Shown here: one piece after another, positions 5,397-59,378 of the stretch
How the letters are laid out: every line of letters begins with the position of its first letter
Position numbering within the stretch: position 1 is the first letter of the stretch
Assembly (NCBI GenBank): GCA_002440965.1
Contig: DJWJ01000019.1
Span: 8,119-72,118, forward strand
Direction: 5' to 3'
Origin: Candidatus Omnitrophica bacterium UBA6233
GTDB lineage: Bacteria; Omnitrophota; Gorgyraeia; Gygaellales; Profunditerraquicolaceae
Length of the DNA: 64,000 nucleotides
The notes under the pieces: generated by a model
Databases searched by the model: none
Seen by the model: the letters and a program-made list of their open reading frames with translations, nothing else
What the model was told of the DNA's origin: nothing
Translations under genes and position numbers: made by a program

Positions 5397-6488
5397 CTAC
5401 CGCAATAATCCCATTGCCGCCTCAAACACCGCGTCAACAGTTACCTGTTTTAAACACTCCTTATCCTTGCCGCAAACCGGAAGCTTGAAATCCCTGTAAC
5501 ACGGCCGGCATTCCACATCCCATTTTAATACCGGATGGTTCTTCTTATCGGGATACGGACCGTAAACCAACTCACTGACCGGGCCGAAAACCGAAACAGT
5601 TTTTACACCCAAAGCGCAAGCCATATGCATCGGGCCGCCATCATTGGATATTAAAAGATTAAGATTCCTGATTACTGCCGGAAGTATTTCTAACTTAACC
5701 TTACCGGTTAAATCTACCGGCTTATGGGCCATAGCATTAATAATTACTTCGGAAATTGGCTGCTCGGTTTCATCGCCTAAAACTATTATTTTTGCCTTAA
5801 ATTCAGCAGCGAGCCTATCCGCCACCTGCGCAAACTTCAATGCCGGCCAGTGCTTATAAACGGCATCCTTTCCCCAACTTCCTCCTGCTCCGGCGGCAAT
5901 TCCTATTACCAAATCTCCTTTTTCAATCCCCCTGGCCGCAAGCATATTTTGCGCCTTTGACTCGGCTTGGGCAGAAACCATCAGCTCCAAAGGCCTGTTT
6001 TTTGCTTCGAGCTGCAAAAAACGCAGCAAATCCAGATAGTATTCGACTACGTGTTTACCGCTATAAGAAACTAAATCTATTTTGTCCGTAAGGAATCCAC
6101 CCCTATTTTTATAATTAAACCCTACGCGCTTACGGATACCTATAATTTTCGCAAATAAACTATAGCGATAGTCCAAGGAAAAGTCAAAGCAAATATTAAA
6201 GTTACATTTTTTAATCTCCCGCCCGAGTTTTAAGGCCTCTTTCAGCCCGGCAAAAAATGACTCTTGATATATCTTCTTGAGGTCGCCGCGGTTTAAACCG
6301 AAAAGCCGGTTGATTTTAAGGCTTGCTTCCAGTAATGGCCGCACTCTTCTATTGCACCAATACCCAATAAAACAATCCGGGTATTTTTCTCTCAGAGCAC
6401 TTATTAACGGAGTGGTAAATAAAACATCCCCGATGCCAAAAGGATTAATAATCAATATCCTTTTATTTCCGCTACCTGTTGAAATCAT
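5397..6488 (-). CDS. Glycosyltransferase family 9 (ADP-heptose:LPS heptosyltransferase-like)
   Basis: 363 aa; RILIINPFGIGDVLFTTPLI N-term and GGPMHMACALGVKTVSVFGP C-term motifs characteristic of GT9. Confidence 0.7.
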   Translation of the reverse strand: MISTGSGNKRILIINPFGIGDVLFTTPLISALREKYPDCFIGYWCNRRVRPLLEASLKINRLFGLNRGDLKKIYQESFFAGLKEALKLGREIKKCNFNICFDFSLDYRYSLFAKIIGIRKRVGFNYKNRGGFLTDKIDLVSYSGKHVVEYYLDLLRFLQLEAKNRPLELMVSAQAESKAQNMLAARGIEKGDLVIGIAAGAGGSWGKDAVYKHWPALKFAQVADRLAAEFKAKIIVLGDETEQPISEVIINAMAHKPVDLTGKVKLEILPAVIRNLNLLISNDGGPMHMACALGVKTVSVFGPVSELVYGPYPDKKNHPVLKWDVECRPCYRDFKLPVCGKDKECLKQVTVDAVFEAAMGLLR

Positions 6489-7872
6489 CTTCGAATCTTT
6501 CTATATCGTCTTCACCAAGATAACTGCCGGTTTGAACTTCTACAATCTTTAAAGGCTCAGCCGAGGTATTCTGAAGCCGGTGCTTAGTCCTCTTAGGAAT
6601 GTAAATACTCTCATTGCTACGCACAATTTTAGTTTTATTCCCGGCAGTAACTTTAGCCACGCCGGAAACAACCACCCAATGCTCAGCGCGTTTTTCATGG
6701 CGCTGCAAACTCAAACGCTTTCGCGGAAATATTTCAATAAGTTTAATCTTAAAACCCGGGCTATCCCTTAAAACAGTAAAAGTCCCCCACGGCCTTTTTT
6801 CAGTAAAATGGACTAAACGTTCCTTACGGTTGGTTGACTTTAAGATATCAACCACTTTCTTAACATCCTGGGTTTTTCCCCGGTCGCAAATCAAAAGCGC
6901 ATCAGGTGTATCGGCGATAATCAGGTCTCTTACTCCGATTGCCGAAATGAGCCTATCAGCCTTACTAAAAATAGCTACTCCGCGGTTATCCAGATTACAG
7001 GTATCTGCCTGCGATATGTTCCCCGAATCATCCTTTGGGCTAACCTCAGCCAAAGCATCCCAGCTGCCTAGGTCTGTCCAGAAGAAATCAGCCGGGATTA
7101 GCGCGATTTTCCTGGAATACTCCATTATCCCGTAATCAACTGAAATTGGCTTAATCTCCGGCCATACCTTCTTAATATCTTTAACTGACCTGATAAAATT
7201 TAACTGCCTGGATAATTCCGGCAGATATTTACGCATCTCTTCCAGGAATACGCTCGCCTTCCAGATAAACATCCCGCTATTCCAGTAAAAACGCTTGTCT
7301 TTAAAATACTTTTTAGCGTTGCTTAAGGAAGGTTTCTCAAGAAAATCCTCAACCTTATAAGTCGATAGTCGATAGTCGATAGTCGATAGTCGTTCGGCAA
7401 CCCTAATATAGCCATACGCTGTTGAAGGATTGCTTGGTTTTATTCCTATTGTAACCAGGAAATTATCTTTAGCGCAAGCAATTGCTTTTTTGATAGCCTT
7501 CTTAAAATTAGAAATATTCTTAATGTAATGATCCGCCGGTAAAACCACCAAAACAGCTTTCTTATCAAACCGCGAGATTAATTCCGCGCAAAGCCCGATA
7601 GCCGGCGCGGTATTTTTACCAAGCGGCTCCAAAATTATATTCTTATCCGGAATGCCGAATTTAGCGACCTGCGCCTTAACCTCATAAAAATAAATATTAT
7701 TCGTAATGATAAAGGTATTCTTCGGGCTAACGACGCCTTTTAAACGCTGGATAGCCGACTCTAACAGGCTCGCCTCTCCGATTAAACGCATAAATTGCTT
7801 TGGCTCAAGTTCACGTGAAAACGGCCAAAACCTGCTCCCTACTCCGCCAGCCAAGATTACGGCATAGACCAT
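6472..7872 (-). CDS. manC: Mannose-1-phosphate guanylyltransferase / mannose-6-phosphate isomerase (bifunctional type II PMI, ManC/CpsB)
   Basis: 467 aa; N-terminal ILAGGVGSRFWP nucleotidyltransferase motif plus C-terminal cupin (RPWGTFTVL...EHRLQNTSAEPLKIVEVQTGSYLGEDDIERFED); ATG at 7870-7872 preceded by GGAGGG RBS (ORF track start 7875 is a TTG). Confidence 0.8.
   Translation of the reverse strand: MVYAVILAGGVGSRFWPFSRELEPKQFMRLIGEASLLESAIQRLKGVVSPKNTFIITNNIYFYEVKAQVAKFGIPDKNIILEPLGKNTAPAIGLCAELISRFDKKAVLVVLPADHYIKNISNFKKAIKKAIACAKDNFLVTIGIKPSNPSTAYGYIRVAERLSTIDYRLSTYKVEDFLEKPSLSNAKKYFKDKRFYWNSGMFIWKASVFLEEMRKYLPELSRQLNFIRSVKDIKKVWPEIKPISVDYGIMEYSRKIALIPADFFWTDLGSWDALAEVSPKDDSGNISQADTCNLDNRGVAIFSKADRLISAIGVRDLIIADTPDALLICDRGKTQDVKKVVDILKSTNRKERLVHFTEKRPWGTFTVLRDSPGFKIKLIEIFPRKRLSLQRHEKRAEHWVVVSGVAKVTAGNKTKIVRSNESIYIPKRTKHRLQNTSAEPLKIVEVQTGSYLGEDDIERFEDDFNR
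7361..7392. repeat. Heptanucleotide microsatellite (GTCGATA)x4.6 inside manC coding sequence
   Basis: gtcgatagtcgatagtcgatagtcgatagtcg; encodes RLSTIDYRLSTYK in manC. Confidence 0.8.
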
Positions 7873-8017
7873 CAAATATTACCCTCCAGAATATCTACTA
7901 AAACGATTTCATCCATCTCCTTTAGAACGCTTAGTATGCTTCTTTTTAATTTAGGAGTGAACACGCAGGAAAAGAAAAATTTTATTTTTTCCATCTCACC
8001 TTTATCAAGCAAGGCGT

Positions 8018-8980: not shown

Positions 8981-9087
8981 TTTAAGTGTGCCCAAATCCA
9001 CTCTCCTAATGTCCCTAACTAGAATTCTTATACAAATACAAATAATTAACAAATACGTTAACTATCTGCACTTAGCCCATATCAAAT

Positions 9088-21115: not shown

Positions 21116-21116
21116 A

Positions 21117-22283: not shown

Positions 22284-22285
22284 CT

Positions 22286-24079
22286 CTAATTGCCCTCCTG
22301 TATAAATATATTTTCTTTAAATTCTTTTCTATCCAGAAAAGGGGACATATCCTCAAGCCGGCTTGAAACTATCTTGCCGTTATCCAGCTTACTGGAGGAA
22401 AGCCGGGGAGCGAATTTATAATTCGTTTCAAGCATAACTTCGCACAAAATCGCGCCTTCCGAATTTATTATCTTAAGGATCTTTTCAGGCATGCCCTTAT
22501 GGGTTGTAATTTTTGCGGCCTTGATCCCAAAAGCGCCGGCCACTTTCACAAAAGAAGGGAAACTGACCCCTGATTTTTTATCGCATCCCACATACGGCGG
22601 GCCAAAAAAATTCTCCTGCGTCTGCCTTATCGAACTGTATCCGCCATTATTCAACACGAATATCTTAATCGGCAGTTTATTATATTTTATGGTCTGTAAT
22701 TCCTGTATATTCATCTGGATACTGCCATCTCCGGCTATGCAGATTATATCCCTATTCCCATTGCCTATGCATGCCCCTATGGAAGCCGGCAAATCATACC
22801 CCATTGCAGCACAACCTGAGTTCCATATTACCCGCTGTTTGTCTTTAACTATACCTGCCTGGAATAGAACTACGGATGGAGTCGCGTTTGCGGTAACAAT
22901 CGTCTCTCCGGGCCTGGCTAATTCGGTAAGAACCCGCATAAAATAATAAGGATTGACCGAAGCAGACCTGCTGTATTCCGGAAGCACTACCGGATACTTA
23001 TCCCTCCTCTTGCTGCACCACAACAACCAATCCTTGCAGTCAAAGCCGGAAATTTTATATTGCAAAAATTTGCTTAAGAAAAGCCCGGCATCGCAGTTAA
23101 TGGCAATATCCGGTTTAATTGTCGGTTTTTTTAGCTCTGCCGAATCTATATCCACAACAACTTTCTTTGCAGCATGCGCGAACGACTGCCAATTATAGCT
23201 AACCTGCCTTATATTATTCCTTGTCCCCAGGCATAAAACGAGGTCGGAATTCTGCAAAGCGAAATTTCCCGCACGGCTGCCTAATGTTCCTATCCTGCCG
23301 ATAAAATACGGATTATCGGAAGGCACTAAATCAAAACCGTTAAAAGTAGATAAAACGGGAACCTTTAATTTGCGGATTAGAGCCAGTAAAAATTCCTTCG
23401 CCCCTGCTATCCGTATTCCATTACCGGCAACTATGACCGGCCTTTTTGATTTCTCAAGCAATTCGAGAAAATGCCGTATTTTACCGTCAATATTATCTGG
23501 TTCCCGCCTGAGGATAATACCGGATCCGATTAGATTATTTTCTTCTATAACTGCTCCCTGAATATCCAAGGGAATATCCAACCACACCGGCCCCGGCCTT
23601 CCGGTAGCCGCTAGGTTAATTGCCTTATCCAATAATTTCCTTATATCTTCGGCTTTCCTGACCGTAGCGGCGAATTTTGTCAATGGCCTGACAACACTTA
23701 CTATATCCACTTCCTGGTCGCCTAACTGTCTTAATCTAATATTTGGACAGGAAGCAATCGTGGTTTCGGATTTTACCTGTCCGGATATATATAACACCGG
23801 AACTGAATCCGTCCATTGCCCCATAACGCCGGTTAACGTATTCAATCCCCCCGGGCCCGTAGTTACATTGACAACGGCGAGTTTGCCGCTTACCCTGGCA
23901 TAGCCTTCCGCGGCTATAGCGCAAGCCTGCTCATGATGCATAAAAATACACTTGAGAAGTTTATTCTTCCCGAATGAATTATTTAAATGCATTGCGCCGC
24001 CGCCGGTAACCATAAAAACGCGCCTAACTCCGTATTTCGTCAGGTACCTGGCGATATAATCGGAAACCTTGATTTTCAT
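22286..24079 (-). CDS. Thiamine-diphosphate-dependent enzyme of the acetolactate-synthase family (YerE-like C-C bond forming enzyme candidate)
   Basis: 597 aa, three-domain ALS architecture: N-terminal Pyr domain (VFMVTGGGAMHLNNSF), central domain, C-terminal PP domain with GDGSIQMNIQELQT. Confidence 0.75.
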   Translation of the reverse strand: MKIKVSDYIARYLTKYGVRRVFMVTGGGAMHLNNSFGKNKLLKCIFMHHEQACAIAAEGYARVSGKLAVVNVTTGPGGLNTLTGVMGQWTDSVPVLYISGQVKSETTIASCPNIRLRQLGDQEVDIVSVVRPLTKFAATVRKAEDIRKLLDKAINLAATGRPGPVWLDIPLDIQGAVIEENNLIGSGIILRREPDNIDGKIRHFLELLEKSKRPVIVAGNGIRIAGAKEFLLALIRKLKVPVLSTFNGFDLVPSDNPYFIGRIGTLGSRAGNFALQNSDLVLCLGTRNNIRQVSYNWQSFAHAAKKVVVDIDSAELKKPTIKPDIAINCDAGLFLSKFLQYKISGFDCKDWLLWCSKRRDKYPVVLPEYSRSASVNPYYFMRVLTELARPGETIVTANATPSVVLFQAGIVKDKQRVIWNSGCAAMGYDLPASIGACIGNGNRDIICIAGDGSIQMNIQELQTIKYNKLPIKIFVLNNGGYSSIRQTQENFFGPPYVGCDKKSGVSFPSFVKVAGAFGIKAAKITTHKGMPEKILKIINSEGAILCEVMLETNYKFAPRLSSSKLDNGKIVSSRLEDMSPFLDRKEFKENIFIQEGN

Positions 24080-24087
24080 TCTTCCTG

Positions 24088-25179
24088 CTATAATCCTCGG
24101 CTGTATATTGTATTCTTCAAACCTTCATTGTTGGCATAGGGGCTGTCGATCATATCAATCTTTATCGGTTCATCCTTCTTGCAGGGCTTTAACAAAACTT
24201 CTCCGCTCATCAATTCCCTGCAGGAAATCTGGCCTTTTTGCAAAGGTATAGCCAGATACACATCCTGCTCCATATCTTCATGATGGAAAATATGCCCCTT
24301 TGGTAAATCCCTTTTTGCATAGACTCCCCTGACAAGAGCGTCAAGATATGTAATTTCTTTCTCGGAAGGGAACCTTTTTGAAGCTCCGGAGGCGCCGCAC
24401 ATCTCTTTCGCTTTTTTAAAAGCCTTAAACCAGGCATCTATCTGATGAGGAAGAGAACAATAGGCAGAAACGGGGTGTTTACCGTCTTCTATATCTATGT
24501 GCCTTTCAAAAGTCCTTGCCCCTTTTGCGTAAGCTATCATTATGGAAGAAGACCAATCATGGTATTCATGGGTAGATAATCCGATGGTATGGTTAGGATA
24601 CCTATTTTTCAAGAAATCTATCTGATTTAGCTCCAGCTCGTGGTCTTCGGAAGGATATAACGCAACACAGTGATTTAAAGCAAGCGGGATATTCCTGTTT
24701 TCAAAAAAAACAACCAGATCATCAAGGTCCTTAAGAGACGAACCCCCGGTAGAAACAATAACCGGTTTCTTGGTCCGGGCAATCCTCTCTATCAATACCC
24801 AATCATTTAAATCGGAACTGGCAATTTTCAATATTTGAATCCCTATTTCCTCACAAAAACCTACAGAATGCTCGTCAAACGGCGTTGCCGAGGAGATCGC
24901 CCCTCCTTTTCTAATAGCATCCACCATAACCGTAAAATCCTCCGGAACCAACCGGGTATCTAGCGTTTTTTTAATATACCGCAGGTCTGCCCTATCGCGA
25001 AAATCCTTATGTATAAAATTGCTTACGTCCCTTATCTGAAGCTTGATGGAAGCTCTTACATTGTTAAACCTGATTATCCTGGAGAATTCACTTATAATCC
25101 TCAAGCCTCTTTCCAGATTGCCGTAATGGTTATTGGCTAATTCTAAAACAAACAAATCTTCAAATATATCCTTATTCAT
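24088..25179 (-). CDS. NeuB-family sugar-PEP aldolase (sialic/legionaminic/pseudaminic acid synthase paralog) with C-terminal SAF domain
   Basis: 363 aa; N-terminal LELANNHYGNLERG (NeuB TIM-barrel signature) and C-terminal SAF-like region. Confidence 0.65.
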   Translation of the reverse strand: MNKDIFEDLFVLELANNHYGNLERGLRIISEFSRIIRFNNVRASIKLQIRDVSNFIHKDFRDRADLRYIKKTLDTRLVPEDFTVMVDAIRKGGAISSATPFDEHSVGFCEEIGIQILKIASSDLNDWVLIERIARTKKPVIVSTGGSSLKDLDDLVVFFENRNIPLALNHCVALYPSEDHELELNQIDFLKNRYPNHTIGLSTHEYHDWSSSIMIAYAKGARTFERHIDIEDGKHPVSAYCSLPHQIDAWFKAFKKAKEMCGASGASKRFPSEKEITYLDALVRGVYAKRDLPKGHIFHHEDMEQDVYLAIPLQKGQISCRELMSGEVLLKPCKKDEPIKIDMIDSPYANNEGLKNTIYSRGL

Positions 25180-25206
25180 AACAATACTACCTCCTCTTAA
25201 GATAGA

Positions 25207-26085
25207 TTACTTGTCGGACAACAATGATTCTCTATTAATTGCCGCTTTGTTTTCCGAATACCACGAATAAAGTCCGCCTATCGATTTCTCCATCGGGCTG
25301 AAATTGAAATCAAGTATCTGGCTGCGGAGCCTTGCATTATCCCCGCTATACTCATAGCACATTCCTTCCTTAGCAACTTTAATCGGAAGCTTTTTGCCGG
25401 ATATTTCGATTACTTTTTCGGCTAACTTATATAATTCCACCGAGGCATCCGGCGTAATATTATAGCAGTTATACTTTGCCTCATTCTCTATGAAATGCGG
25501 AATAATCCTCACAAAATCCTCGATGTAAACATAATCGAATTTTCTATTCTGTTTTGCGGTAATCGGCAGATCGAAAATGGCCTTGCAAATTGCGTTAGAG
25601 ATGAACCTTATGGCATAATCTTCATATTTACCGAAAATACCGAAAATACGCAGTTCTACGATATTTTCGAGCTTCTCTATCTGTTTAGCTATAATATACT
25701 TGGAAAATCCATGCTCATCCTCGGGGACATACGTATCAAAAAAATCTTCGCTTACCTTTACCAACGGCTTGGACACATCGTATACCGCACCCGAACTTAA
25801 AAATACCATCTTGCCGAAATACCCTCTATTCCGGATTATGTTAAAGAACATACGTAAATTATTATAAAGCTGCCTGGACGGATCCTTGGCATTACGGTTC
25901 CCGGGGCGCACGGCGCTGTGGATTATCACATCCGGCTTATGAACCTGAAGATAACTTCTTACCGCATTTCCATCCAAAAGCTCCAGTTCTTTATGCCCTG
26001 GGGCAAATAATTCATACTTTTGCTTCAGGTATTCTGCCAGATTCCTGCCGATAAAGCCGCTGCCGCCGGTGAGAAATATTTTCAT
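25207..26085 (-). CDS. NAD(P)-dependent epimerase/dehydratase-family protein (candidate NDP-4-keto-sugar reductase)
   Basis: 292 aa; Rossmann motif IFLTGGSGFIGRNL. Confidence 0.6.
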   Translation of the reverse strand: MKIFLTGGSGFIGRNLAEYLKQKYELFAPGHKELELLDGNAVRSYLQVHKPDVIIHSAVRPGNRNAKDPSRQLYNNLRMFFNIIRNRGYFGKMVFLSSGAVYDVSKPLVKVSEDFFDTYVPEDEHGFSKYIIAKQIEKLENIVELRIFGIFGKYEDYAIRFISNAICKAIFDLPITAKQNRKFDYVYIEDFVRIIPHFIENEAKYNCYNITPDASVELYKLAEKVIEISGKKLPIKVAKEGMCYEYSGDNARLRSQILDFNFSPMEKSIGGLYSWYSENKAAINRESLLSDK

Positions 26086-26822: not shown

Positions 26823-26836
26823 AAAATTAGACAGGA

Positions 26837-27769: not shown

Positions 27770-27779
27770 CTTAATAAAA

Positions 27780-27833
27780 GGGGACGGTTCTATTTTTCTT
27801 AAATACCTAAACCGGAAAAATAGAACCGTCCCC
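27780..27833 (-). repeat. 19-bp-stem hairpin of the GGGACGGTTCT family, 10 nt upstream of start codon of 26837..27769; T-run follows on the minus strand
   Basis: GGGGACGGTTCTATTTTTC (27780-27798) pairs perfectly with GAAAAATAGAACCGTCCCC (27815-27833); 16-nt loop. Confidence 0.6.
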
Positions 27834-28808
27834 TTTAGCTCCCCTTTTAACCCTATAGCTTTCTATTGTTTGGATTAAACCCGCTAAAACAGAGAACTTA
27901 GGCTTCCAACCGAGTTTAGCCCTGGCTTTGCGGGAAGACAAATACTGATGTTTTATTTCATACTTCGCCTGATTCAATATTTTATAATCAACTGGTTTGC
28001 CAACGGATTTAGCAATCATTTTAACCAGTTCGATGACCGTAAGCGGATTTTCACAGCTAAAATTAAAAGCTTCACCGGCAAGGTTAAGCTTCCGCATTTT
28101 TTCCGCTAAAAGGATATAGCCGTTCACTATGTCCTCCACGAACACATAATCGCGGGTAAACAGACCGTCGCTGCGGATTAAAAGTTTTTTTCCGGCAAGC
28201 GCGCATTTAACCGCATCAGGAACAAGACGGCTGGAATTAAAATCTCCGGGGCCGTAGATGTTACCGCAACGAGTAACACATACAGGCAGGCCATAGGTAT
28301 GGGCGTAGGTATTGGCGATTAAATCCGCGCAGCTTTTGGAAACATCATACGGATGGCTGCCTTGTAACGGAGCCTTTTCCGTATAGGGAAGTTTTTCATG
28401 GATTCCATAGGCCTTATCGCTAGAGGCGAGAATAACTGCTTCGATGTTTTTTGCGTTCCGGCAGGCCTCCAAAACATTCCAGGTTCCCCGGATATTCGCA
28501 GAAAAAGCTGACAAGGGGCGGTTATGGCATTTCCCTACAATGGCCTCTGCCGCTAAATGGAATACCAGATTAATCTTATTTTCCCTTATTATTTTTTCTA
28601 ACAGTTTATAGTTCGCCACGCTGCCTTTAACAACGGATATCCTCTTATAGTCATCCGGAGCAAGAAGCGTGGCTTTTCTTTCAGTCTTAATATCTAATCC
28701 GATTATCCTGGCTCCGGAAGGAATCAACGCCCTGGTAAGATTAGAACCCAAGAACCCTTCAAATCCGGTAATCAGCACATTTTTTCCCGCCCAAAATTTC
28801 TTATTCAT
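27807..28808 (-). CDS. ddhB: CDP-glucose 4,6-dehydratase
   Basis: 333 aa; N-terminus KKFWAGKNVLITGFEGFLGSNL matches RfbG/DdhB signature (FW.GK.V..TGhTGFkGsWL). Confidence 0.7.
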   Translation of the reverse strand: MNKKFWAGKNVLITGFEGFLGSNLTRALIPSGARIIGLDIKTERKATLLAPDDYKRISVVKGSVANYKLLEKIIRENKINLVFHLAAEAIVGKCHNRPLSAFSANIRGTWNVLEACRNAKNIEAVILASSDKAYGIHEKLPYTEKAPLQGSHPYDVSKSCADLIANTYAHTYGLPVCVTRCGNIYGPGDFNSSRLVPDAVKCALAGKKLLIRSDGLFTRDYVFVEDIVNGYILLAEKMRKLNLAGEAFNFSCENPLTVIELVKMIAKSVGKPVDYKILNQAKYEIKHQYLSSRKARAKLGWKPKFSVLAGLIQTIESYRVKRGAKGDGSIFPV

Positions 28809-28817
28809 TGACCTATC

Positions 28818-29594
28818 TTAATCCTTCCATTTTTTCCAGGGAGCCTTGCCGCTATCCCAAAGCGCTTCCAACTCGCACCTATCCCGTAACGTATCCATAC
28901 ATTTCCAAAAACCATTGTGTTTAAACCCAACCAACTGATTATCCAAGGCCATACTTTTTAGAGAATCGAATTCCCATATAGAGCGGTCTCCGCTGATATA
29001 GTCGAAAACTTCCGGCTCAAGCACAAAGAATCCGCCGTTAATCCACGAGCCATCCCCTTTTGGTTTTTCGAGGAAAGAATTGACTGTTCCCGAATCTTTC
29101 ATTCTTAGGGCGCCAAACCTGCCGGCAAGCTGAACCGCGGTAACTGTCGCGCTTTTACCGGAACGCTTATGAAATTTAAGCAGCTGCCGGATATCCACGT
29201 CGCTAACTCCATCGCCATAAGTCATCATAAATGTTTTATTGCCTACGTATTTCTGAACGCGCTTCAGGCGGCCGCCGGTCATTGTGTCAAGGCCGGTATC
29301 GACAAGAGTAATCTTCCACGGTTCGGAAGACGTCGCGCGGACTTCCACAGCGTTTTTCTTCAAATCAATGGTAATATCGCTCATATGCATAAAATAATGG
29401 GAGAAATACTCCTTGATTATGTAGCCCTTATAGCCTAAACAGATAATAAAATCGTTGAATCCGAAATGAGAATACAGCTTCATAATATGCCAGATGATAG
29501 GCTTGCCGCCGATTTCGACCATCGGCTTGGGAATATTGGTCGTCTCTTCGCTGATTCTCGTTCCTCTGCCGCCAGCTAATATGACTACTTTCAT
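28818..29594 (-). CDS. ddhA: Glucose-1-phosphate cytidylyltransferase
   Basis: MKVVILAGGRGTRISEET...PKPMVEIGGKPIIWHIM; start at Met14 of track ORF (ATG 29592-29594) preceded by AAGGAGAG RBS. Confidence 0.8.
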   Translation of the reverse strand: MKVVILAGGRGTRISEETTNIPKPMVEIGGKPIIWHIMKLYSHFGFNDFIICLGYKGYIIKEYFSHYFMHMSDITIDLKKNAVEVRATSSEPWKITLVDTGLDTMTGGRLKRVQKYVGNKTFMMTYGDGVSDVDIRQLLKFHKRSGKSATVTAVQLAGRFGALRMKDSGTVNSFLEKPKGDGSWINGGFFVLEPEVFDYISGDRSIWEFDSLKSMALDNQLVGFKHNGFWKCMDTLRDRCELEALWDSGKAPWKKWKD

Positions 29595-29604
29595 ACGCTC
29601 TCCT

Positions 29605-30816
29605 TTATGGCTTAAAAACCGGTTCTTGCTCAAGCTTAGAGCTTAAGGCAACCGTCAAGCCTAATACCGTCCAAAAAAGAAAACTTAACTGAAAAGAATA
29701 CAGGTGAACCTCAAAAAAACTATGGACTAAAAACCCCAATAACCCCGCAGTCAGGCCCAATAAAGCAAAACTACCCAGAGATCCGGGCGCGCTTAAACTT
29801 ATCCTGATACTCCTGTAGAAAATATAGCCCATAAACAGAAGAAAACACAATAAGGAAAAAACTCCCGATTCCGCCCAAATTTGAAGGAAACAATTATGCG
29901 CGTAAAAAATACCCGGGCTATTGGTATAGGAAGCGCAATAATCCATAAAAGTGCCGATACCCTTACCCAAAAAAGGGTGCTCCCTAATCATCCGGCCGGC
30001 GCCGCGGAAAAGAGTGAACCTGTAACTATCCCGCCTGTTCTGGAAGAAAAATAAAAGCAATCCCAATAACGGCACAAAAAAAAGATAGCAAACCAAAAAC
30101 AGGGGCCAAAATACTTTTTTTAGCCGGAGACGGTTAGTGACTAAAACTATAAGAATTAAACCGGAAACAACGCCTAACCACCCGCCCCGGGAAAGAGCCC
30201 AAAGAGAAGACAGGATAAGCATAATGGTAATCAGAAAAAGGCACAATCTTACAGCCGCTTTTTTCCATTTCCACAGGCTAAGGCTCAAGGCAAGGGGAAT
30301 AACGCAGGTCAAATAAGCTGCCAAGGCATTTGGATTTTTAAAAGGGCCTATGCTGGGCAACGAATGGCCCCATGAACCCCTTCCTCTTAAGAATTCAAAC
30401 CCAAAAAACTTTTGCGTAAAAACCGTAAGCCCTACCAGCGCCGCGCTAAACAAGAGGACATAAACCGCCTTAACAATGCGCTTGGTATCCTTAAACGTAT
30501 CGATAATTGCCCAAAGAAGCAAAGGAAACCTGCCCCATTTCAAGATAAGCACCTTTAAGCTTTTAGCCAATAATGGCCCGCTGTTAAACAGGGACAAACC
30601 CATAAAGACAAAAAATAACAGCAGGAATAAAAACAAAACTTTATTGGCCTTGATACTGGAAAAATCGGGGAATAAAATTTTTTTAAGCAAAAAGAAGGCA
30701 AGGACAAAACCGGCAAAAGAACCGATCATCGCTATAGAGATGGGGATAAAGAATATCAACCCGTAAACAGAATATTCCACCGCCGCGTCCAAAAATCTTA
30801 ATATTTTTAATTTCAT
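29605..30816 (-). CDS. O-antigen ligase/Wzy_C-family membrane protein (second paralog)
   Basis: 403 aa polytopic; WALSRGGWLGVVSGL loop motif. Confidence 0.5.
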   Translation of the reverse strand: MKLKILRFLDAAVEYSVYGLIFFIPISIAMIGSFAGFVLAFFLLKKILFPDFSSIKANKVLFLFLLLFFVFMGLSLFNSGPLLAKSLKVLILKWGRFPLLLWAIIDTFKDTKRIVKAVYVLLFSAALVGLTVFTQKFFGFEFLRGRGSWGHSLPSIGPFKNPNALAAYLTCVIPLALSLSLWKWKKAAVRLCLFLITIMLILSSLWALSRGGWLGVVSGLILIVLVTNRLRLKKVFWPLFLVCYLFFVPLLGLLLFFFQNRRDSYRFTLFRGAGRMIREHPFLGKGIGTFMDYCASYTNSPGIFYAHNCFLQIWAESGVFSLLCFLLFMGYIFYRSIRISLSAPGSLGSFALLGLTAGLLGFLVHSFFEVHLYSFQLSFLFWTVLGLTVALSSKLEQEPVFKP

Positions 30817-49476: not shown

Positions 49477-50982
49477 CTAACGCGTGATACCAAAACGTTC
49501 CAAACTTGCTCGTGAAAAATCCAGTTTCAATACTCGAGCTACAATGTAAATAAGCGGTAGATAACCAAGCAAATATAGAATGACTTTAGCGCCTGCGATT
49601 ATTAAAGAATCTGTGAATAAATGGGCGGAAATAAAATAACTTACTGCACTTTCAACTGACCACAGTAATATTAACATATAGATAAACGGCGCCCAAAGTC
49701 GGGAAAAAAACCGAATCCAATCCTTATATTGCCTTGTGTAATGGGATAGCGCATACCCAATAACAATACATGAATAAAAAAAATAGGTAAGCAGCGTACC
49801 GCCAACTGCTATCCCTTCAATTCCATAACCCATACGTATGAATAGGAAATCCAGAATTATATTAAAGACGAGCGCAATACAGCCGAAAAAGGCGTATTGT
49901 TTCAATTTACCGGTAGTCACTAAAAAATAATCAGTCAGACCAAGGATGCCATAAAAGAAAATCCCAACAGCAACAATTCTGGCAGCAACAATGCCAGGAG
50001 CATAAGCCGGAAGAAAAGTCTTAACAACAAACGGCAGGACTAGATATAACGGACCTATTAACAATGGTAACAAGAAACTCAAGACCATGGGTGGTATAAA
50101 AACATATGACCGTAGCGCCTCAATACTTCTTCCTGTATTTCCAAAGTGATAACTGATCCGAGGATATAATACCTGGCTTGCCATTGACGGTATCAGGGAT
50201 ATTACACTAACTAACAAGAGTGCCAACCCCAAGTATCCTAATTGTGTCTCTCCCAGAAAAGCGATGACCATGAGACGGTCAATAGATGTCAACATTGTTA
50301 TTATAAAACCGGAAACTAAAATAGGTATGCCCACGCGCATTAATGACCATGCAAAAGACAAGTTGAATTTTGGCACTGGTTGCCAAGGATTACGGTATAA
50401 AGCGTACATTACAATTGCTGCCTGCGCCAGAATTGCGGCAATTAACCGTCCTTTTAGCCCACTAAAAATTACAAATAATATTGCTAGTCCTGCGGTAGCT
50501 ATAGCAAGCAAAACTTGCTGTTGGCTTAATTCCTTGAAGTGATTATGGGAACGCAACAAGATTCGATGATAAGTGTAAATTTGCTGCAGAATCAAAACAA
50601 CCGCCATAGCCTGCATTCCAAAAGATATTTCAGATGAATGCCCTGGTAAAAAAGAGATTACAAACACAACCATGGATGCAAGAATAGCTCCATAAATTGT
50701 AGTATACCTAGCCGCGCCATCAACATCCGCAACTCTTTGAGAATCACCTTGCCCTAAATAAATAGGCAGATCGCGCCCCATCGCAGAAAGTACACCAAAT
50801 TCCACATAAGCCCCATATGATAAAACTAATAAAACTGCATTCCAAACCCCATAATCATGAGGACCAAGCAAACGGGCGACCCAAAAACCCGAAACCAAAC
50901 CTATAGCCTGCGACGCAAATGCACTAACACTGTAATAAAATGCATCTTTAATTATATGAAATCGATTATGCAGCTGCCTCAT
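49477..50982 (-). CDS. Oligosaccharide flippase (Wzx, MOP superfamily)
   Basis: 501 aa, 12-14 TM helices, Wzx-like N-terminal amphipathic start. Confidence 0.6.
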   Translation of the reverse strand: MRQLHNRFHIIKDAFYYSVSAFASQAIGLVSGFWVARLLGPHDYGVWNAVLLVLSYGAYVEFGVLSAMGRDLPIYLGQGDSQRVADVDGAARYTTIYGAILASMVVFVISFLPGHSSEISFGMQAMAVVLILQQIYTYHRILLRSHNHFKELSQQQVLLAIATAGLAILFVIFSGLKGRLIAAILAQAAIVMYALYRNPWQPVPKFNLSFAWSLMRVGIPILVSGFIITMLTSIDRLMVIAFLGETQLGYLGLALLLVSVISLIPSMASQVLYPRISYHFGNTGRSIEALRSYVFIPPMVLSFLLPLLIGPLYLVLPFVVKTFLPAYAPGIVAARIVAVGIFFYGILGLTDYFLVTTGKLKQYAFFGCIALVFNIILDFLFIRMGYGIEGIAVGGTLLTYFFYSCIVIGYALSHYTRQYKDWIRFFSRLWAPFIYMLILLWSVESAVSYFISAHLFTDSLIIAGAKVILYLLGYLPLIYIVARVLKLDFSRASLERFGITR

Positions 50983-51923
50983 TTATTTTTTTTCGATAAA
51001 GCCCTTATCCTATATTCTTCTATCGTTTTCTTTATTCCATCTTCTAATAACATCTTCGGGGCGTAGCCCAAAGCATTAAGTCGTGAAACATCCATACATT
51101 TACGCGGCATACCATCAGACTTTGCGGTATCCCAATTTATAAAACCTTTATAGCCTGTTTTTTGAGCAATTAGTTTTACTAAATCCCGAATTGAAATATC
51201 AATACCCCAACCAATATTGATAAATGCAGATTCGTTGTAATTATCTATCAGGAAAAGAATGGCTTCGGCGGCGTCATCTACATGCATGAACTCCCGCCTT
51301 GCTGAACCCGTCCCCCAGACAGTAACACTATCTATCTCTGAGCCTACAGCATCAACAAATTTCTTAACAAGGGCGGCTAGCACATGTGAGCGCGAAGGAT
51401 CAAAGCTATCATTAGTCCCATACAAATTGCACGGCATCACGCTGATACCCCCAAACCCATATTGCTTACGGTAATATTCAACCATTTTAAGGCCCGCAAT
51501 TTTCGCTAAGGCATAACTTTCATTTGTCGGCTCTAATGGTCCAGTGAGTAAATACTCCTCTCTCATAGGTTGAAGGCATTCGCGCGGATAAATACAAGAG
51601 CTACCCAGGAAACAAAACTTTTTAACTCCACTCAAAAATGATTGATGTATTACATTATTCTGAATTGCGAGATTATCAAAAAGAAATTCGGCAGGATGCT
51701 CAAGGTTAGCCTGAATACCTCCAACGCGGGCAGCAGCAAAGATAACTATTTCCGGCTTCTGCATCGCGAAAAAATTCTTAACAGCGAGAGAATCTCTCAA
51801 GTCGAGTTCCCGATGATTACTCAAAACAAGATTTTCAAATCCCTTTTTTTTGAGCAAACGTACTATTGCTGATCCCAACATCCCGCTGTGTCCGGCAACA
51901 TATATACGATTATTTTTATCCAT
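50979..51923 (-). CDS. fcl: GDP-L-fucose synthase family (GDP-4-keto-6-deoxymannose 3,5-epimerase/4-reductase; could equally be a ColC-type GDP-colitose synthase)
   Basis: 314 aa; RIYVAGHSGMLGSAIVRLL, canonical Fcl N-terminus. Confidence 0.75.
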   Translation of the reverse strand: MDKNNRIYVAGHSGMLGSAIVRLLKKKGFENLVLSNHRELDLRDSLAVKNFFAMQKPEIVIFAAARVGGIQANLEHPAEFLFDNLAIQNNVIHQSFLSGVKKFCFLGSSCIYPRECLQPMREEYLLTGPLEPTNESYALAKIAGLKMVEYYRKQYGFGGISVMPCNLYGTNDSFDPSRSHVLAALVKKFVDAVGSEIDSVTVWGTGSARREFMHVDDAAEAILFLIDNYNESAFINIGWGIDISIRDLVKLIAQKTGYKGFINWDTAKSDGMPRKCMDVSRLNALGYAPKMLLEDGIKKTIEEYRIRALSKKNK

Positions 51924-51972
51924 TTGAATTCATCTATTAATAAACTATCCTTAAAAACATATGCCTAACATG

Positions 51973-52779
51973 TTATACTTTGCTCCATAATTCCGGAACT
52001 AAATCTCTCGGACTACTCCTGGCTTTTTCAGTAAACCATTTTTGTGGTGCAAATACCTTCTTGTTCGGATTTTTATTCAGCCATGCTCCCCACCAGCTAA
52101 AAGTACTATTAGCAATAATGTTATGCTTACACAAACTCATTAAACGCATGTCTTCATAATTTTTATCTGCCCCGTTGTGATCAACAAATGTAACCGGATA
52201 CGGAAGTTTAAAATTATCACGTACCCAAAGGATATCATCGGCAAATATAAAAAAATGCGGTTTCTTAAGATCGCGAACAATGCGTTTAGCGGAATCCAAG
52301 TAATAATCAAAACTGCAACTTTCTAATATCTGCTCCTTATAAGTATTAGGCAGGTAATCTGACCTACGTATATGCACACTTACCGAATCACAACACATAA
52401 TTTGCCCAACGACTTCTTTATCTCTACCCGATAATGGCAACTTTACAGATAGTTCGCACCTAATAATATCAGCAATACTTTTAAAATATTTCTCGCTTTG
52501 CCAATAACCGAGCAAGTAAACTTTATCAGGAAGTTGCAATATTTCGGGATCAAAATGAAAGTGTTTTTCCCGTACATGTTTTACTTCTGCTAATTCATCC
52601 GGTGTAGCAAAATTTTCTACAATATTTAAATGGTTTAAGGAATACGCGTGTATCTTATAAAACTCGAATTCCGATATATCAATTTTTAATTCCGCATGAC
52701 AAATTTCGGACAGATGCCGCCCAACAGCATATTGAAAACACTGATTCCCAAGTCCACCGATTAATCTAGTAATAATCAT
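51973..52779 (-). CDS. Glycosyltransferase family 11 (alpha-1,2-fucosyltransferase-like)
   Basis: 268 aa; ITRLIGGLGNQCFQYAVG = GT11 signature motif I. Confidence 0.8.
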   Translation of the reverse strand: MIITRLIGGLGNQCFQYAVGRHLSEICHAELKIDISEFEFYKIHAYSLNHLNIVENFATPDELAEVKHVREKHFHFDPEILQLPDKVYLLGYWQSEKYFKSIADIIRCELSVKLPLSGRDKEVVGQIMCCDSVSVHIRRSDYLPNTYKEQILESCSFDYYLDSAKRIVRDLKKPHFFIFADDILWVRDNFKLPYPVTFVDHNGADKNYEDMRLMSLCKHNIIANSTFSWWGAWLNKNPNKKVFAPQKWFTEKARSSPRDLVPELWSKV

Positions 52780-53957
52780 GCCTCATGCCTCTTAAGACAA
52801 TCGGTTAAAGTTTTAATATCTTTCTTATTTAATTCCGGATAGTTCCCGCAATAAAACCCCCGATCATGGACAAAATCAACATCAGGGAGTTCATATGAAT
52901 AAAGAATATATTTTTTGTAAAAAGGTTGTCTCTGAATGTTGCCGGCAATTATGGGACGGGTCTCAATGCCGGCGTTAGAGAAAAGTTTCATATATCTGCA
53001 TTTGAGCTGCGGAGTTTTGCATAAAACCGGAAATGCGAAATTAGAAAGCACCGAAATATGCGACCTATCAAGCGTTTGCAGGTCAGGATTATCTTTTACT
53101 ATAGACTCCAGCAATAAGTAATTTCTTTGTCTTATAGCTATATTCTCCTTTAAGAATTTTAATTGATATCGTCCCAGAAAGCCTGTTATCTCAGTCGGGC
53201 GAATATTATAACCCAGATCATAAAAAGTGTATTTCGCTTCGAATTCGGAATTAATATTGTATTTCTTCCGCCACCTATGTTGTTTAGGCGCACTTAAATT
53301 ACGGTCCCACCCATTTGCACGGACAATTCTAAGCATTTCATCTATCTCTCCGTCGTTTGTGCAAATCATCCCACCCTCGACAGTAGACATATGGTGTGCA
53401 ACAAAAAATGAAAACGAAGACATTATTCCGAAATTTCCAGTTTTACCAGAAGGTAATTCTGTTCCTAATGCTTCACAATTATCTTCAATTAGAATAATCT
53501 GGGCTTCATTACAAACTTTACGAATAACATCAAGATCTCCCGCAAAACCAAGCGCGTTAGTAACAAAAAATGCCCGGAGATCTGTCTGGTTCAGCCGTTT
53601 TTTAAGATTGGATGCCATAACGTTCAGAGTCCTTTGATCGCAATCAATTGGAACTGGTTGCATACCAAGCTGCAGAATAGGCATAACATTTGTAGACCAG
53701 GTTAACGCTGAAAAACCAATTTTATCCCCATCTTTCAATCTGCCAAGGTTTTTAAGCGCTTGAAGCATAGCAAGATTAGCGCTCCCTCCGCTATTCACAA
53801 GAGTCGCATTCTTTACACCTTGAAATACGGCAAATTCTTTTTCAAAGGCTACAACCTGTTCCCCCATACTTAACTTCTTGGCTTTTAAAATAAACTTTAC
53901 TAAGGCATCTTTCGTATCAAGTTCATTTAAAAAAGCACTTTTCATTAAGGGAATCAT
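52776..53957 (-). CDS. DegT-fold sugar 3-dehydratase of the ColD type (GDP-4-keto-6-deoxymannose-3-dehydratase-like), not a transaminase
   Basis: 393 aa; PLP-lysine position occupied by His (SFSFFVAHHMSTVEGG); no Cys cluster. Confidence 0.55.
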   Translation of the reverse strand: MIPLMKSAFLNELDTKDALVKFILKAKKLSMGEQVVAFEKEFAVFQGVKNATLVNSGGSANLAMLQALKNLGRLKDGDKIGFSALTWSTNVMPILQLGMQPVPIDCDQRTLNVMASNLKKRLNQTDLRAFFVTNALGFAGDLDVIRKVCNEAQIILIEDNCEALGTELPSGKTGNFGIMSSFSFFVAHHMSTVEGGMICTNDGEIDEMLRIVRANGWDRNLSAPKQHRWRKKYNINSEFEAKYTFYDLGYNIRPTEITGFLGRYQLKFLKENIAIRQRNYLLLESIVKDNPDLQTLDRSHISVLSNFAFPVLCKTPQLKCRYMKLFSNAGIETRPIIAGNIQRQPFYKKYILYSYELPDVDFVHDRGFYCGNYPELNKKDIKTLTDCLKRHEA

Positions 53958-54943: not shown

Positions 54944-56212
54944 TTAATCATCCACACCGCCGCCCCATATTGTGTGCCTCAATCTCCATTGGCCATTAAT
55001 TTTTGACCAAAGATGAGGTGAACGGAAATGATCACAAAGTTCCATAAATCTCTCTGGTTTAATTTCTAAATAATTCATAATTTCTTTAAAGTATTTGTCC
55101 GGAAACTCACCATCGAATTTTTTCACTAGGGCAACACCTTCTTCCCGTGTCAAATGGTTATTCCTTATCTCCTGGGAAGCATCATAAGTAGCCCGTCCGA
55201 TCCCAAATTTAATAAATGTTGTATAATAATGGAGATCATCAATCTTATCATCAATACTATTGTATTTGCTATAAGTCCCCTGAGTCCTAAACGGTCTGGC
55301 CTTAAATCCCGTATTTTCAACCGCATAATAATACACTTCTTCCGGTGTCCACTTGAGGTAATATCCGAGATAATGCACCTCAATAGCTGCTTTTTCCAGC
55401 TCAACCGGGCTGCAAGGTAAAAAAGGCATCAGATCATTAAGTGAAACGTTATATTTATCTGTTAACTCCCTGATAGATATTCCTCCTAAGTAAATTTCAT
55501 CTAAATCTTTAAACATATAATATGATTTGTCGCGCAATGACTTGGTATTATCGGCAAGAGGATTGCCGTATTCAGCCTCATTTTCTCCGTAAAAAACAAG
55601 AGGTATCCCGAATTTCGCAGCAAGCTTGGGCCCTAAATTCTTTTGGCCCAAAATAAAAGTTTGAAAAGGATGGAACAAGTTTTCTATACTCAGCCTTGTT
55701 AAAAGCTTCATAATCTGTCCATTATGATTAAAGCTTAGATTGTCAAAACCTCCGATATCCAGCCAATTCTTAAAATTCTTGTAACCGTAATCCGTATATA
55801 AAATCGGGGACCAGGTCACTGTCAATGGATGCATTCCATACTTATACTTCAAAATATGCGCCTGATAAGCGCTGTCTTTACCGCCGCTGCCGGGAACTAT
55901 GCAATCATATTCACCGTCGTTGCGCCGGTATTTTTCCAGAAGCTTCAATAATTCATCTTCGCGTTTTTTCCAATCAATGCGCGTTTTTTCCTCGGCATGC
56001 AAACAGGCATCGCAAACACCCTCTTCATTAATATTTAAGGTGACCTTTTTACTTTGGATCGTATGCTTAAACTCGATAGCTGAGGCCGGCCTTTGATTAG
56101 ACATAACGCATCTTTTACAGAAAATCACTTTTTCCGGTAACCCGTATTTTACTTCAATATTTTCGCTCATTTTTTCATCAACTCCGAGTGCGCAGATACA
56201 ATCTGAGCCCAA
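54944..56212 (-). CDS. N-acetyl sugar amidotransferase (PP-loop ATPase; WbuX/WbpG/PseA family)
   Basis: 422 aa; SGGKDS PP-loop (CIVPGSGGKDSAYQ), N-terminal Cys-rich segment. Confidence 0.8.
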   Translation of the reverse strand: MGSDCICALGVDEKMSENIEVKYGLPEKVIFCKRCVMSNQRPASAIEFKHTIQSKKVTLNINEEGVCDACLHAEEKTRIDWKKREDELLKLLEKYRRNDGEYDCIVPGSGGKDSAYQAHILKYKYGMHPLTVTWSPILYTDYGYKNFKNWLDIGGFDNLSFNHNGQIMKLLTRLSIENLFHPFQTFILGQKNLGPKLAAKFGIPLVFYGENEAEYGNPLADNTKSLRDKSYYMFKDLDEIYLGGISIRELTDKYNVSLNDLMPFLPCSPVELEKAAIEVHYLGYYLKWTPEEVYYYAVENTGFKARPFRTQGTYSKYNSIDDKIDDLHYYTTFIKFGIGRATYDASQEIRNNHLTREEGVALVKKFDGEFPDKYFKEIMNYLEIKPERFMELCDHFRSPHLWSKINGQWRLRHTIWGGGVDD

Positions 56213-56901
56213 TTCTTAAAAACTCTCAATCCTTTTAACCCGCTCTTTTCAGGATGAAACTGTGTAGCACAGATGGAATCTTTTAAAAGAGCAGAGCAGT
56301 ATTCCGTATCCTCATAGTTTGTTTTCGTAAGAACAAAACTGGTATCATCTAAAACTGCATAATATGAATGCACAAAATACATATACTCGCCATCAGGTAT
56401 GTTTTGTAAAATAGGGGCACCCTGAAAGGCGGGATGAATTTTATTAAAAAACACCCGGTTCCATCCAACCTGCGGAACCTTGATCTTCCGCCCCGCTTTA
56501 TCTATACTATTGAATTTGATAACCCTGCCTTTGATAACATCCAGGCCTTTGTGCCCGCCGAATTCTTCACTTTCAGTCAAAAGAAGCTGCATCCCCAAAC
56601 AAATTCCCAAAAAAGGCTTACTTAATCCGATACGATCCTTTATTGCTCCGACTAAATCCATTTTTTTTAAATTATTCATTGCATCCCCAAAAGCTCCTAC
56701 GCCGGGAAGAATAACGCCCCCTGCCTGTAAAATAATATCTTTATCCGCAGTAATAACGCTGCGCAAACCTACACTGGCACACGCACGCTGGACATTAAAC
56801 AAATTACCCATGCCATAATCGATAATCGCTACCTGATGTTTATTTAGGTCCGGCATAGGTATCCTGTTCATTATACAGACGGCACTGAACCCCTTCATCA
56901 A
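56167..56901 (-). CDS. HisH-like glutamine amidotransferase subunit (WbuY-type)
   Basis: 244 aa; class I GATase triad region LGICLGMQLL...H.. Confidence 0.8.
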   Translation of the reverse strand: MMKGFSAVCIMNRIPMPDLNKHQVAIIDYGMGNLFNVQRACASVGLRSVITADKDIILQAGGVILPGVGAFGDAMNNLKKMDLVGAIKDRIGLSKPFLGICLGMQLLLTESEEFGGHKGLDVIKGRVIKFNSIDKAGRKIKVPQVGWNRVFFNKIHPAFQGAPILQNIPDGEYMYFVHSYYAVLDDTSFVLTKTNYEDTEYCSALLKDSICATQFHPEKSGLKGLRVFKNWAQIVSAHSELMKK

Positions 56902-57730
56902 TTAAATATTTTTTTATCAAAGGAAGCGGCTCGGATTTAAAATTTGTAAAAACCCGGCCGCTCTTTAAAAATTCAACATTGCCTTCGCTAAATAGTCCTG
57001 AATCAAATTCTGCTTCTTTAATAACATGATAATGCAGCATAGAGGCAATGGCCACGGCATCCGCTCCGCCCTGAATAATGGCATCTTTAACATCTTCCAG
57101 CTTCCCGGGACCACCGGAAGCAATCACGGGAATAGCAACAGAATCCGATACGGTTTTTATCAGCTCCAGGTCATAGCCTGACCCGGTTCCATCGCGGTCA
57201 ACAGAGGTTAATAATATCTCGCCGGCGCCCAGCTCTTCTGCCCGCTTTGCCCAGGCAAGAACCTCCACTCCCGTATATTCTCTGCCGTTATCAATATATG
57301 CCAGGTACTTTCCATCTGCTTGCCTGATCACCTCAATAGTAATGACAATCGTAGAAGATCCGAAGATCCGTGAAGCCTCATAAATAAAATTGGGATTCTT
57401 AATCGCGGCAGTATTCAAAGAAACTTTATCCGCTCCGGCCCTTAAAACACTCCGGATGTCCTCGATAGTCCTGAGCCCTCCCCCAACCGTCAAAGGAATA
57501 AAAATTTCTTGCGCTGTTTTATTAATTATATTATGCAGGCTATTGCGGTTATACAAGCTGGCAACCACATCGATGTAAATAAGCTCATCAGCGCCATGCT
57601 CATAATAAAACCGGGCAAAATCTTCCGGTTTACCCAAAACACGCAAGCCCTCTAAATGAATACCTTTAACAAGATTCGGACCTTTGATATCAAGCCTAGG
57701 GATAATGCGAATGTTCTTAGCCATTTTCAA
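56840..57730 (-). CDS. HisF-like cyclase/ammonia-channel subunit (WbuZ-type)
   Basis: 296 aa; (beta/alpha)8 HisF motifs [10 protein letters not shown]...DGTGSGYDL. Confidence 0.8.
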
Positions 57731-57744
57731 ATTAAATATTTTAA

Positions 57745-58602: not shown

Positions 58603-58660
58603 TTCTTCCCCTTTCAATATTTTAAAGATAATAGAACAAAATTTAATCCCCCTATACGCA

Positions 58661-59377: not shown

Positions 59378-59378
59378 T

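Follow-up and report, generated by a model that had tools for sequence, protein, structure and literature searches.

Does an uncultured Omnitrophota bacterium build the rare sugar colitose (3,6-dideoxy-L-xylo-hexose) into its surface glycan, or are the genes that point that way better explained by fucose or by some other sugar? The question is raised by three consecutive genes in a 64,000-nucleotide stretch of DNA (the window) from Candidatus Omnitrophica bacterium UBA6233 (GenBank assembly GCA_002440965.1, contig DJWJ01000019.1, positions 8,119 to 72,118 of the forward strand). The minus strand carries every gene of the window, which belongs to one very large O-antigen or capsule locus of more than 70 kb. 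A first-pass annotation, made from the sequence alone, had read the three genes as a ColD-type dehydratase, a GT11 glycosyltransferase and an Fcl/ColC-family enzyme, which would make and transfer GDP-colitose rather than, or in addition to, L-fucose.

The three open reading frames were recovered at identical coordinates, and Pfam and NCBIfam scans identified all of them as real genes; coordinates and family scans together confirm that the Fcl/ColC-family enzyme and the GT11 transferase are encoded next to the ColD-like gene. Four bases are shared between the end of the ColD-like gene and the beginning of the GT11 gene, and likewise between the end of the Fcl-like gene and the beginning of the Wzx gene downstream of it; these overlaps suggest co-translation. 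Our conclusion is that the three genes probably form a cassette for the synthesis and transfer of GDP-L-colitose.

A ColD-type 3-dehydratase

The ColD-like protein (393 residues) matches the family DegT_DnrJ_EryC1 (PF01041) at 209 bits (E 1.4e-61, cutoff 19.8), which makes it a fold-type I enzyme dependent on pyridoxal or pyridoxamine 5'-phosphate (PLP or PMP). Its top solved relatives were four entries for ColD of Escherichia coli O55 (2GMS at 219 bits, E 1e-63), with lower scores for E1 (3BCX, 150 bits) and for the perosamine synthases (about 98 bits). The protein contains SFSFFVAHHMSTVEGG, the first histidine of which is residue 188. Its segment FSFFVAHHMSTVEGG aligns without a gap with FSSFYSHHIATMEGG of ColD, so that His188 lies over His188 of the E. 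coli enzyme (PDB 2GMS). This is the column flagged by the ColD mutant entries 2R0T (H188K, SKH) and 3B8X (H188N, SNH), and it is occupied by lysine in two aminotransferases encoded on the same contig. The claim that a histidine replaces the PLP-binding lysine thus stands. As there is no lysine within residues 173-223, a realignment could not put one at the Schiff-base site, and a misreading of the motif can be set aside.

The iron-sulfur cluster of cysteines that had been reported as missing is indeed missing. In E1 enzymes the motif cysteines act as [2Fe-2S] ligands. The window's own E1-type enzyme, RfbH, carries TCSFF and DCHCETGRDNAC (C-x-C-x7-C), whereas the ColD-like protein has no cysteine at the positions aligned with these, lacking both the upstream cysteine and DCHCETGRDNAC. 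On the RfbH model (NF011936) it scored 230 bits against a cutoff of 423, below the E1 threshold. The same division is described for the characterised enzymes, with a four-cysteine motif present in E1 and SpnQ and missing from ColD (review PMC8987622).

The window's E1 is about as similar to E. coli ColD as the ColD-like protein is, and we therefore built a tree (neighbour-joining, 100 bootstraps, 48 sequences, with the E. coli protein as the single ColD reference). E. coli ColD and 35 ColD-like sequences formed one clade with 100% bootstrap support. Its sister was the E1 clade, itself supported at 100%, and the lysine-bearing aminotransferases fell outside both. A His-His pair was found at the active site of all 34 relatives examined. 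By its sequence, with histidine at the lysine site, no iron-sulfur motif and a place in the ColD clade, the DegT-fold protein is of the ColD type, as the first-pass annotation had proposed.

The likeness to ColD itself (E. coli O55; PDB 2GMS/2GMU; WP_000611604.1) extends beyond these features. Both proteins have the DegT/aspartate-aminotransferase fold and a similar length (388 residues in ColD), the histidine has the identical residue number, the iron-sulfur motif is missing from both, and the conserved residues round the cofactor site (D159, E162, S183, N251/R253 and R334) are common to both. The two differ in that Ser187 of ColD is alanine in the window protein, and in that the window protein belongs to a separate, tightly conserved subfamily of about 391 residues, with 34% identity to ColD (reference L076:702-1868, E. 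coli O55:H7 CB9615).

It is scarcely credible that the protein is an aminotransferase of the perosamine-synthase kind, or a relic that has lost its catalytic activity. The DegT fold and weak matches to many aminotransferase models would fit such a reading, but a lysine is missing at or near the Schiff-base position, and the perosamine synthases, among which it might have been placed, reach less than half the score of ColD. The conservation of relatives at 47-80% identity across phyla, with an invariant His-His, indicates strong purifying selection and argues against a relic.

Relatives and their public names

More than 5,000 database sequences matched the ColD-like protein at E <=1e-20, and the best 120 of them were 66-80% identical to it. 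The sources of these 120 included a Candidatus Omnitrophota metagenome-assembled genome (100% identity), Deltaproteobacteria, Ginsengibacter, Parabeggiatoa and, in one match at 68% identity, a Candidatus Argoarchaeum archaeon; this archaeal match suggests horizontal spread. The subfamily as a whole, 47-80% identical internally, crosses phyla that include Omnitrophota, Patescibacteria, Bacteroidota and Proteobacteria.

In public sources the close relatives (P0008, P0014, P0021, P0102 and others) are named CDP-6-deoxy-D-xylo-4-hexulose-3-dehydrase (E1), UDP-4-amino-4-deoxy-L-arabinose aminotransferase or simply DegT aminotransferase. These labels appear to be automatic and uncurated, and the subfamily is probably mis-annotated systematically.

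Supply of the substrate

A ColD-type enzyme of this pathway would need GDP-4-keto-6-deoxy-D-mannose, and the first-pass annotation had seen manC but no gmd. The window does lack gmd: the top tblastn match within its 64 kb was an Rmd-like gene at only 26% identity. A true gmd was found about 4.7 kb past the right end of the window, on the same contig and strand (window-equivalent positions ~68,680-69,750), as the second gene after wzz at the head of the cluster. It encodes a product of 356 residues (L009:1303-2373), and the JGI copy (L010:1249-2319) scored 512 bits on TIGR01472 (cutoff 415). Both ends of the 79,291-bp ENA contig of a second assembly (L009, L016) overlap the window and match it there at 100% identity. 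With gmd on the same contig the gap in the pathway is closed. The supply of the ColD-type substrate is thus a matter of genomic association: gmd on the contig, manC in the window and Gmd near the relatives described below.

The Rmd-like short-chain dehydrogenase/reductase (SDR) was considered as a Gmd and rejected, with 98.5 bits on TIGR01472 and RMD (2PK3) as its best solved relative. It is probably a third consumer of the Gmd product, leading to GDP-D-rhamnose, and a reductase of this type predicts D-rhamnose in the glycan.

A conserved neighbourhood

Species-representative genomes were scanned for relatives of the ColD-like protein, and 34 loci were obtained, with identities of 47-77% to the window protein; open reading frames were called and compared with the window proteins, with identity thresholds of at least 45% for Fcl-like proteins, 50% for Gmd, and 40% each for CDP-glucose 4,6-dehydratase and Rmd-like proteins. 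An Fcl-like gene adjoined the ColD-like gene in the same orientation in 22 of the 34 loci and lay within 10 kb in 24. GT11 genes adjoined it in 15 and lay within 10 kb in 18, while Gmd was present within 10 kb in 20, of which 18 had it within 3.1 kb. Neither a CDP-glucose 4,6-dehydratase nor an Rmd-like gene at these thresholds was found in any of the 34 loci. The pattern spans Omnitrophota, Deltaproteobacteria, Saganbacteria, Cytophagales, Flavobacteriales, Patescibacteria and Gammaproteobacteria.

In Chryseobacterium balustinum DSM 16775 the genes run Fcl-like, ColD-like, GT11, GT2 and Gmd, within a Wzt-type O-polysaccharide cluster. There is no second Fcl within 10 kb of this cassette, and no enzyme other than the lone Fcl homologue is evident that could take the ColD product to completion. 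Flavobacterium aureirubrum J3 is a further carrier of the cassette. A literature search for colitose demonstrated by chemical analysis in Flavobacterium, Chryseobacterium or Echinicola gave nothing usable. The locus from Candidatus Saganbacteria (L020) is different. It has two Fcl-family genes (5619-6560 and 9060-10004), one beside Gmd, 42% identical to the window protein and in an outlying clade, the other beside the ColD-like gene and 58% identical, and it is the sole locus of the 34 with a possible division of labour between Fcl and ColC.

An alternative is that the ColD-like protein is a cluster-free 3-dehydratase for another nucleotide sugar (a CDP-, dTDP- or GDP-heptose 4-keto intermediate), and that the Fcl-like and GT11 genes lie nearby by coincidence. 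The low identity to E. coli ColD is in keeping with this, as is the label CDP-6-deoxy-D-xylo-4-hexulose-3-dehydrase on relatives, and the window does encode a CDP-glucose pathway. That pathway has its own E1, however, the labels appear uncurated, and the protein shares a fully supported clade with ColD. The relatives keep company with Gmd in more than half of the loci, most often at close range, and in none with a CDP-glucose 4,6-dehydratase at the 40% threshold. We regard another substrate as very improbable, and the GDP-colitose precursor as the likely one.

The GT11 transferase

The protein encoded between the ColD-like and Fcl-like genes matches Glyco_transf_11 (PF01531) at 97 bits (E 1.5e-27, cutoff 23.9), and no solved structure was related to it at E <0.01. 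The E. coli O55:H7 O-antigen cluster encodes Gmd, ManC, ColD, ColC and a 290-residue protein named by RefSeq as an alpha-1,2-fucosyltransferase. This protein (Pfam GT11, 126 bits) is the product of the only GT11 gene in the cluster, and we take it to be WbgN. Over its full length the window GT11 is 32.6% identical to it, and the two have in common the motifs GGLGNQxFQYA, HIRRxDY and NSxFSWWGAWL; the donor-binding motif HxRRxDY reads HIRRSDY here and HIRRGDY in WbgN. The gene wbgN is clustered with colD, colC and gmd, as the window gene is with genes of the same families. WbgN is a characterised alpha-1,2-colitosyltransferase, with GDP-colitose as its natural donor and GDP-fucose also accepted (PMC12723683), and a GT11 colitosyltransferase is therefore already known.

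The identity to WbgN is modest, and donor specificity is not something that can be read from the sequence. Gene context alone favours colitose over fucose as the donor.

Fcl or ColC

The third protein of the cassette matches Pfam Epimerase at 200 bits and the NCBIfam model for GDP-L-fucose synthase (NF047922) at 421 bits (E 2.6e-126), below that model's cutoff of 500, and a solved relative is the Fcl entry 7LL6 (310 bits). On the same model E. coli Fcl scored 551 and E. coli ColC 304, while four ColD-adjacent homologues, together with a homologue 4.7 kb from its ColD-like gene (locus L017), scored 397-443. The reference proteins, ColC of E. coli O55 (WP_000698393.1) and E. coli WcaG/Fcl (PDB 1BWS), are 39% identical to each other. 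The window protein resembles them as a member of the extended SDR family with conserved catalytic residues: the Ser/Tyr/Lys triad and the acid-base pair of Cys and His align with both. It resembles ColC also in being encoded in an operon with a ColD-type gene. It differs from ColC in its greater closeness to Fcl, with a model score between those of the two references, and in that the GT11 gene separates it from the ColD-like gene, where E. coli colC directly abuts colD.

Several observations weigh against the colitose reading. The Fcl-like protein has a higher identity to E. coli Fcl (47.6%) than to ColC (40.2%). All of the catalytic residues of Fcl are kept, as S108, C110, Y137, K141 and H180 (S107, C109, Y136, K140 and H179 in Fcl), residues whose catalytic roles are familiar from GMER/Fcl. 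The first-pass annotation had looked to a phylogeny of Fcl against ColC. The neighbour-joining tree of 32 sequences, with one ColC reference, did not group the protein with ColC and recovered no separate ColC clade; both references, Fcl and ColC of E. coli, nested among the ColD-adjacent homologues, a topology that favours neither function. The ColC role thus rests on gene context. Further back in the pathway, an identity of only 34% links the ColD-like protein to E. coli ColD, to which the window's E1 is about equally similar, and we know of no assayed member of its subfamily of about 391 residues. The trees are neighbour-joining trees only, with one ColD and one ColC reference. As WbgN tolerates GDP-fucose, GT11 membership leaves the donor unfixed. 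The neighbourhood counts, finally, overstate the number of independent cases, since about ten of the 34 loci come from closely related Chryseobacterium and Flavobacterium.

The closeness to Fcl, the kept residues and the nesting of Fcl make GDP-L-fucose synthesis possible, and on these sequence grounds the Fcl-like protein may also make GDP-L-fucose. A stronger form of this idea takes the genes for a fucose cassette that has gained a dehydratase. The Fcl-like protein would then be an ordinary GDP-L-fucose synthase and the GT11 an alpha-1,2-fucosyltransferase, with the ColD product passing to a different reductase, such as the Rmd-like enzyme, to give a GDP-3,6-dideoxy-D-hexose, or with a promiscuous Fcl making both fucose and colitose. 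Beyond the three points just named, the GT11 family, which consists mostly of fucosyltransferases, fits this scheme, as do the breadth of WbgN and the presence of the Rmd-like reductase in the same locus. Against it, the protein falls short of the curated Fcl cutoff that E. coli Fcl passes, and so do all of the ColD-adjacent homologues tested. The Fcl-like gene adjoins the ColD-like gene in most of the related loci, often as the sole reductase near Gmd, and without an Fcl-like partner the ColD product would be a dead end. An Rmd-like gene that could take its place was absent from every related locus at the threshold used. A fucose cassette is, on balance, unlikely, and a ColC-like role in the synthesis of GDP-L-colitose is the one that we favour for the Fcl-like protein.

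Two 3-dehydratases in one locus

Apart from the ColD-type enzyme, the window encodes an E1-type 3-dehydrase in a CDP-sugar module at 19802-29633 on the minus strand (Table 1), which also holds a methyltransferase and a metallo-beta-lactamase-fold protein. An E3-type iron-sulfur flavoprotein reductase was not recognised near E1 in the Pfam listings. The module resembles the yersiniose (YerE/YerF) route, by analogy with which yersiniose is its putative product. In that route a thiamine pyrophosphate (TPP)-dependent flavoprotein adds a two-carbon branch, according to a reference cited in PMC5399914.

The presence of two mechanistically distinct 3-dehydratases in one locus had been called unusual, and this was overstated. 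The O unit of Yersinia pseudotuberculosis O:6 contains L-colitose and yersiniose A, and its gene cluster includes the GDP-colitose genes (PMC5399914). The combination of ColD-type and E1-type enzymes is thus uncommon, yet has a characterised precedent. In O:6 one surface polysaccharide combines colitose, which is GDP-derived, with a branched 3,6-dideoxyhexose that is CDP-derived and E1-dependent; the counterparts in the window are the ColD-type module and the RfbF/RfbH module beside a TPP-dependent enzyme and an SDR. The two loci differ in phylum and in size, the window locus being much larger, with additional legionaminic-acid-like and D-rhamnose branches, and the window E1 has no recognised E3 reductase gene nearby.

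Table 1. Genes of the proposed colitose cassette, of GDP-sugar metabolism and of the CDP-sugar module, in window coordinates
Feature	Position	Strand	Family, scores and predicted role
ColD-type PMP/PLP-dependent sugar 3-dehydratase, 393 aa	52776..53957	-	PF01041; predicted GDP-4-keto-6-deoxy-D-mannose 3-dehydratase, catalytic His188
GT11 glycosyltransferase, 268 aa	51973..52779	-	PF01531; predicted alpha-1,2-colitosyl (or fucosyl) transferase
Fcl/ColC-family extended SDR, 314 aa	50979..51923	-	predicted GDP-4-keto-3,6-dideoxy-D-mannose 5-epimerase/4-reductase (GDP-L-colitose synthase role)
Wzx-type polysaccharide flippase, 501 aa	49477..50982	-	PF01943 and PF13440 on the identical gene in L001; directly downstream of the Fcl-like gene
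ManC, mannose-1-phosphate guanylyltransferase/mannose-6-phosphate isomerase	6472..7875	-	TIGR01479, 490 bits (cutoff 373); supplies GDP-mannose
Rmd-like GDP-4-keto-6-deoxy-D-mannose reductase, 318 aa	45800..46756	-	PDB 2PK3 (GDP-6-deoxy-D-lyxo-4-hexulose reductase), 237 bits, E 2.8e-69
E1/RfbH-type CDP-4-keto-6-deoxyglucose 3-dehydrase, 437 aa	19802..21115	-	NF011936, 717 bits (cutoff 423); His-His at Lys site; C-x-C-x7-C
TPP-dependent acetolactate-synthase-like enzyme	22286..24079	-	
Divergent NeuB-like protein	24088..25179	-	
Further SDR	25207..26085	-	
CDP-glucose 4,6-dehydratase-like SDR	27807..28808	-	205 bits, below cutoff 278
RfbF	28818..29633	-	420 bits (cutoff 300)

Further genes of the locus

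A legionaminic-acid-like pathway occupies the right-hand end of the window (54944-64000, minus strand) and continues beyond it (L010:2322-7203). Its genes encode LegB (487 bits), LegC (482 bits), NeuB (492 bits), a CBS-domain nucleotidyltransferase and a NeuD-type acetyltransferase, together with a formyltransferase, a PIG-L deacetylase, a 2-epimerase and a CMP-transferase. At 54944-56212 on the minus strand is a WbuX amidotransferase (359 bits vs 203), with HisH-like and HisF-like partners at 56167-57730, a set that suggests an acetimidoyl- or formyl-modified nonulosonic acid.

Between about 33000 and 39300, again on the minus strand, a block without glycan genes interrupts the locus and appears to have been inserted between two sub-clusters. 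A GNAT acetyltransferase (PF00583) is encoded there beside a TacA1 antitoxin-family gene, together with a Bro-N protein, two AAA_14/DUF4143 ATPases and a ParE toxin. The window also carries several Wzy_C-type and several GT9 heptosyltransferase-like genes. Three minus-strand reading frames have no Pfam match on record, at 14850-16319 (489 residues), 17020-19101 (693 residues) and 57745-58695 (316 residues).

Discussion

The pathway that best fits these genes would begin with ManC, making GDP-mannose, and Gmd, encoded about 4.7 kb beyond the window, converting it to GDP-4-keto-6-deoxy-D-mannose. The ColD-type enzyme would form a PMP Schiff base at C4 of this sugar, with His188 acting as the acid/base that expels the 3-hydroxyl. 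Hydrolysis of the resulting enamine would release GDP-4-keto-3,6-dideoxy-D-mannose and ammonia, and glutamate would regenerate PMP. This step would need neither an iron-sulfur cluster nor an E3 reductase. The chemistry is carried over by analogy from E. coli ColD, for which the PMP Schiff base, the hydrolysis of the enamine and the regeneration of PMP by glutamate have been described (PMC8987622).

The Fcl-family enzyme would then epimerise C5 and reduce C4 with NAD(P)H to give GDP-L-colitose, and the GT11 transferase would attach colitose to the repeat unit under assembly; by comparison with WbgN, the linkage is most likely alpha-1,2. The Wzx-type protein encoded downstream would flip the unit across the membrane. 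Of the readings considered, that of GDP-colitose with a GT11 transferase, as first proposed, is the best: the ColD-like gene keeps its association with Fcl-like, GT11 and Gmd genes across phyla, and the E. coli O55 set is likewise Gmd, ColD, ColC and the GT11 protein WbgN.

A variant of this picture is that a cassette without a dedicated ColC has spread horizontally, with one ordinary Fcl taking both 3-hydroxy and 3-deoxy ketosugars, or with some other GDP-3,6-dideoxyhexose as the product. We hold this to be decidedly unlikely. If an ordinary Fcl did double in this way, carriers could make both fucose and colitose with one enzyme set.

The pathway is already known from E. coli O55 and O111 and from Yersinia, and its chemistry, its gene set, its GT11 transferase and the pairing with E1 all have precedents. 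No new mechanism is opened by the Omnitrophota locus. What it adds is a rare sugar, colitose, as a probable constituent of the surface glycan in an uncultured member of the Omnitrophota, and the recognition that ColD-type, Fcl-type and GT11 genes recur widely as a cassette, in lineages both uncultured and cultured, Patescibacteria and Chryseobacterium/Flavobacterium among them. The cultured carrier Chryseobacterium balustinum DSM 16775 makes the prediction testable. The value of the finding lies in a better annotation of a subfamily that probably bears the wrong names, and in the prediction of glycans for uncultured lineages.

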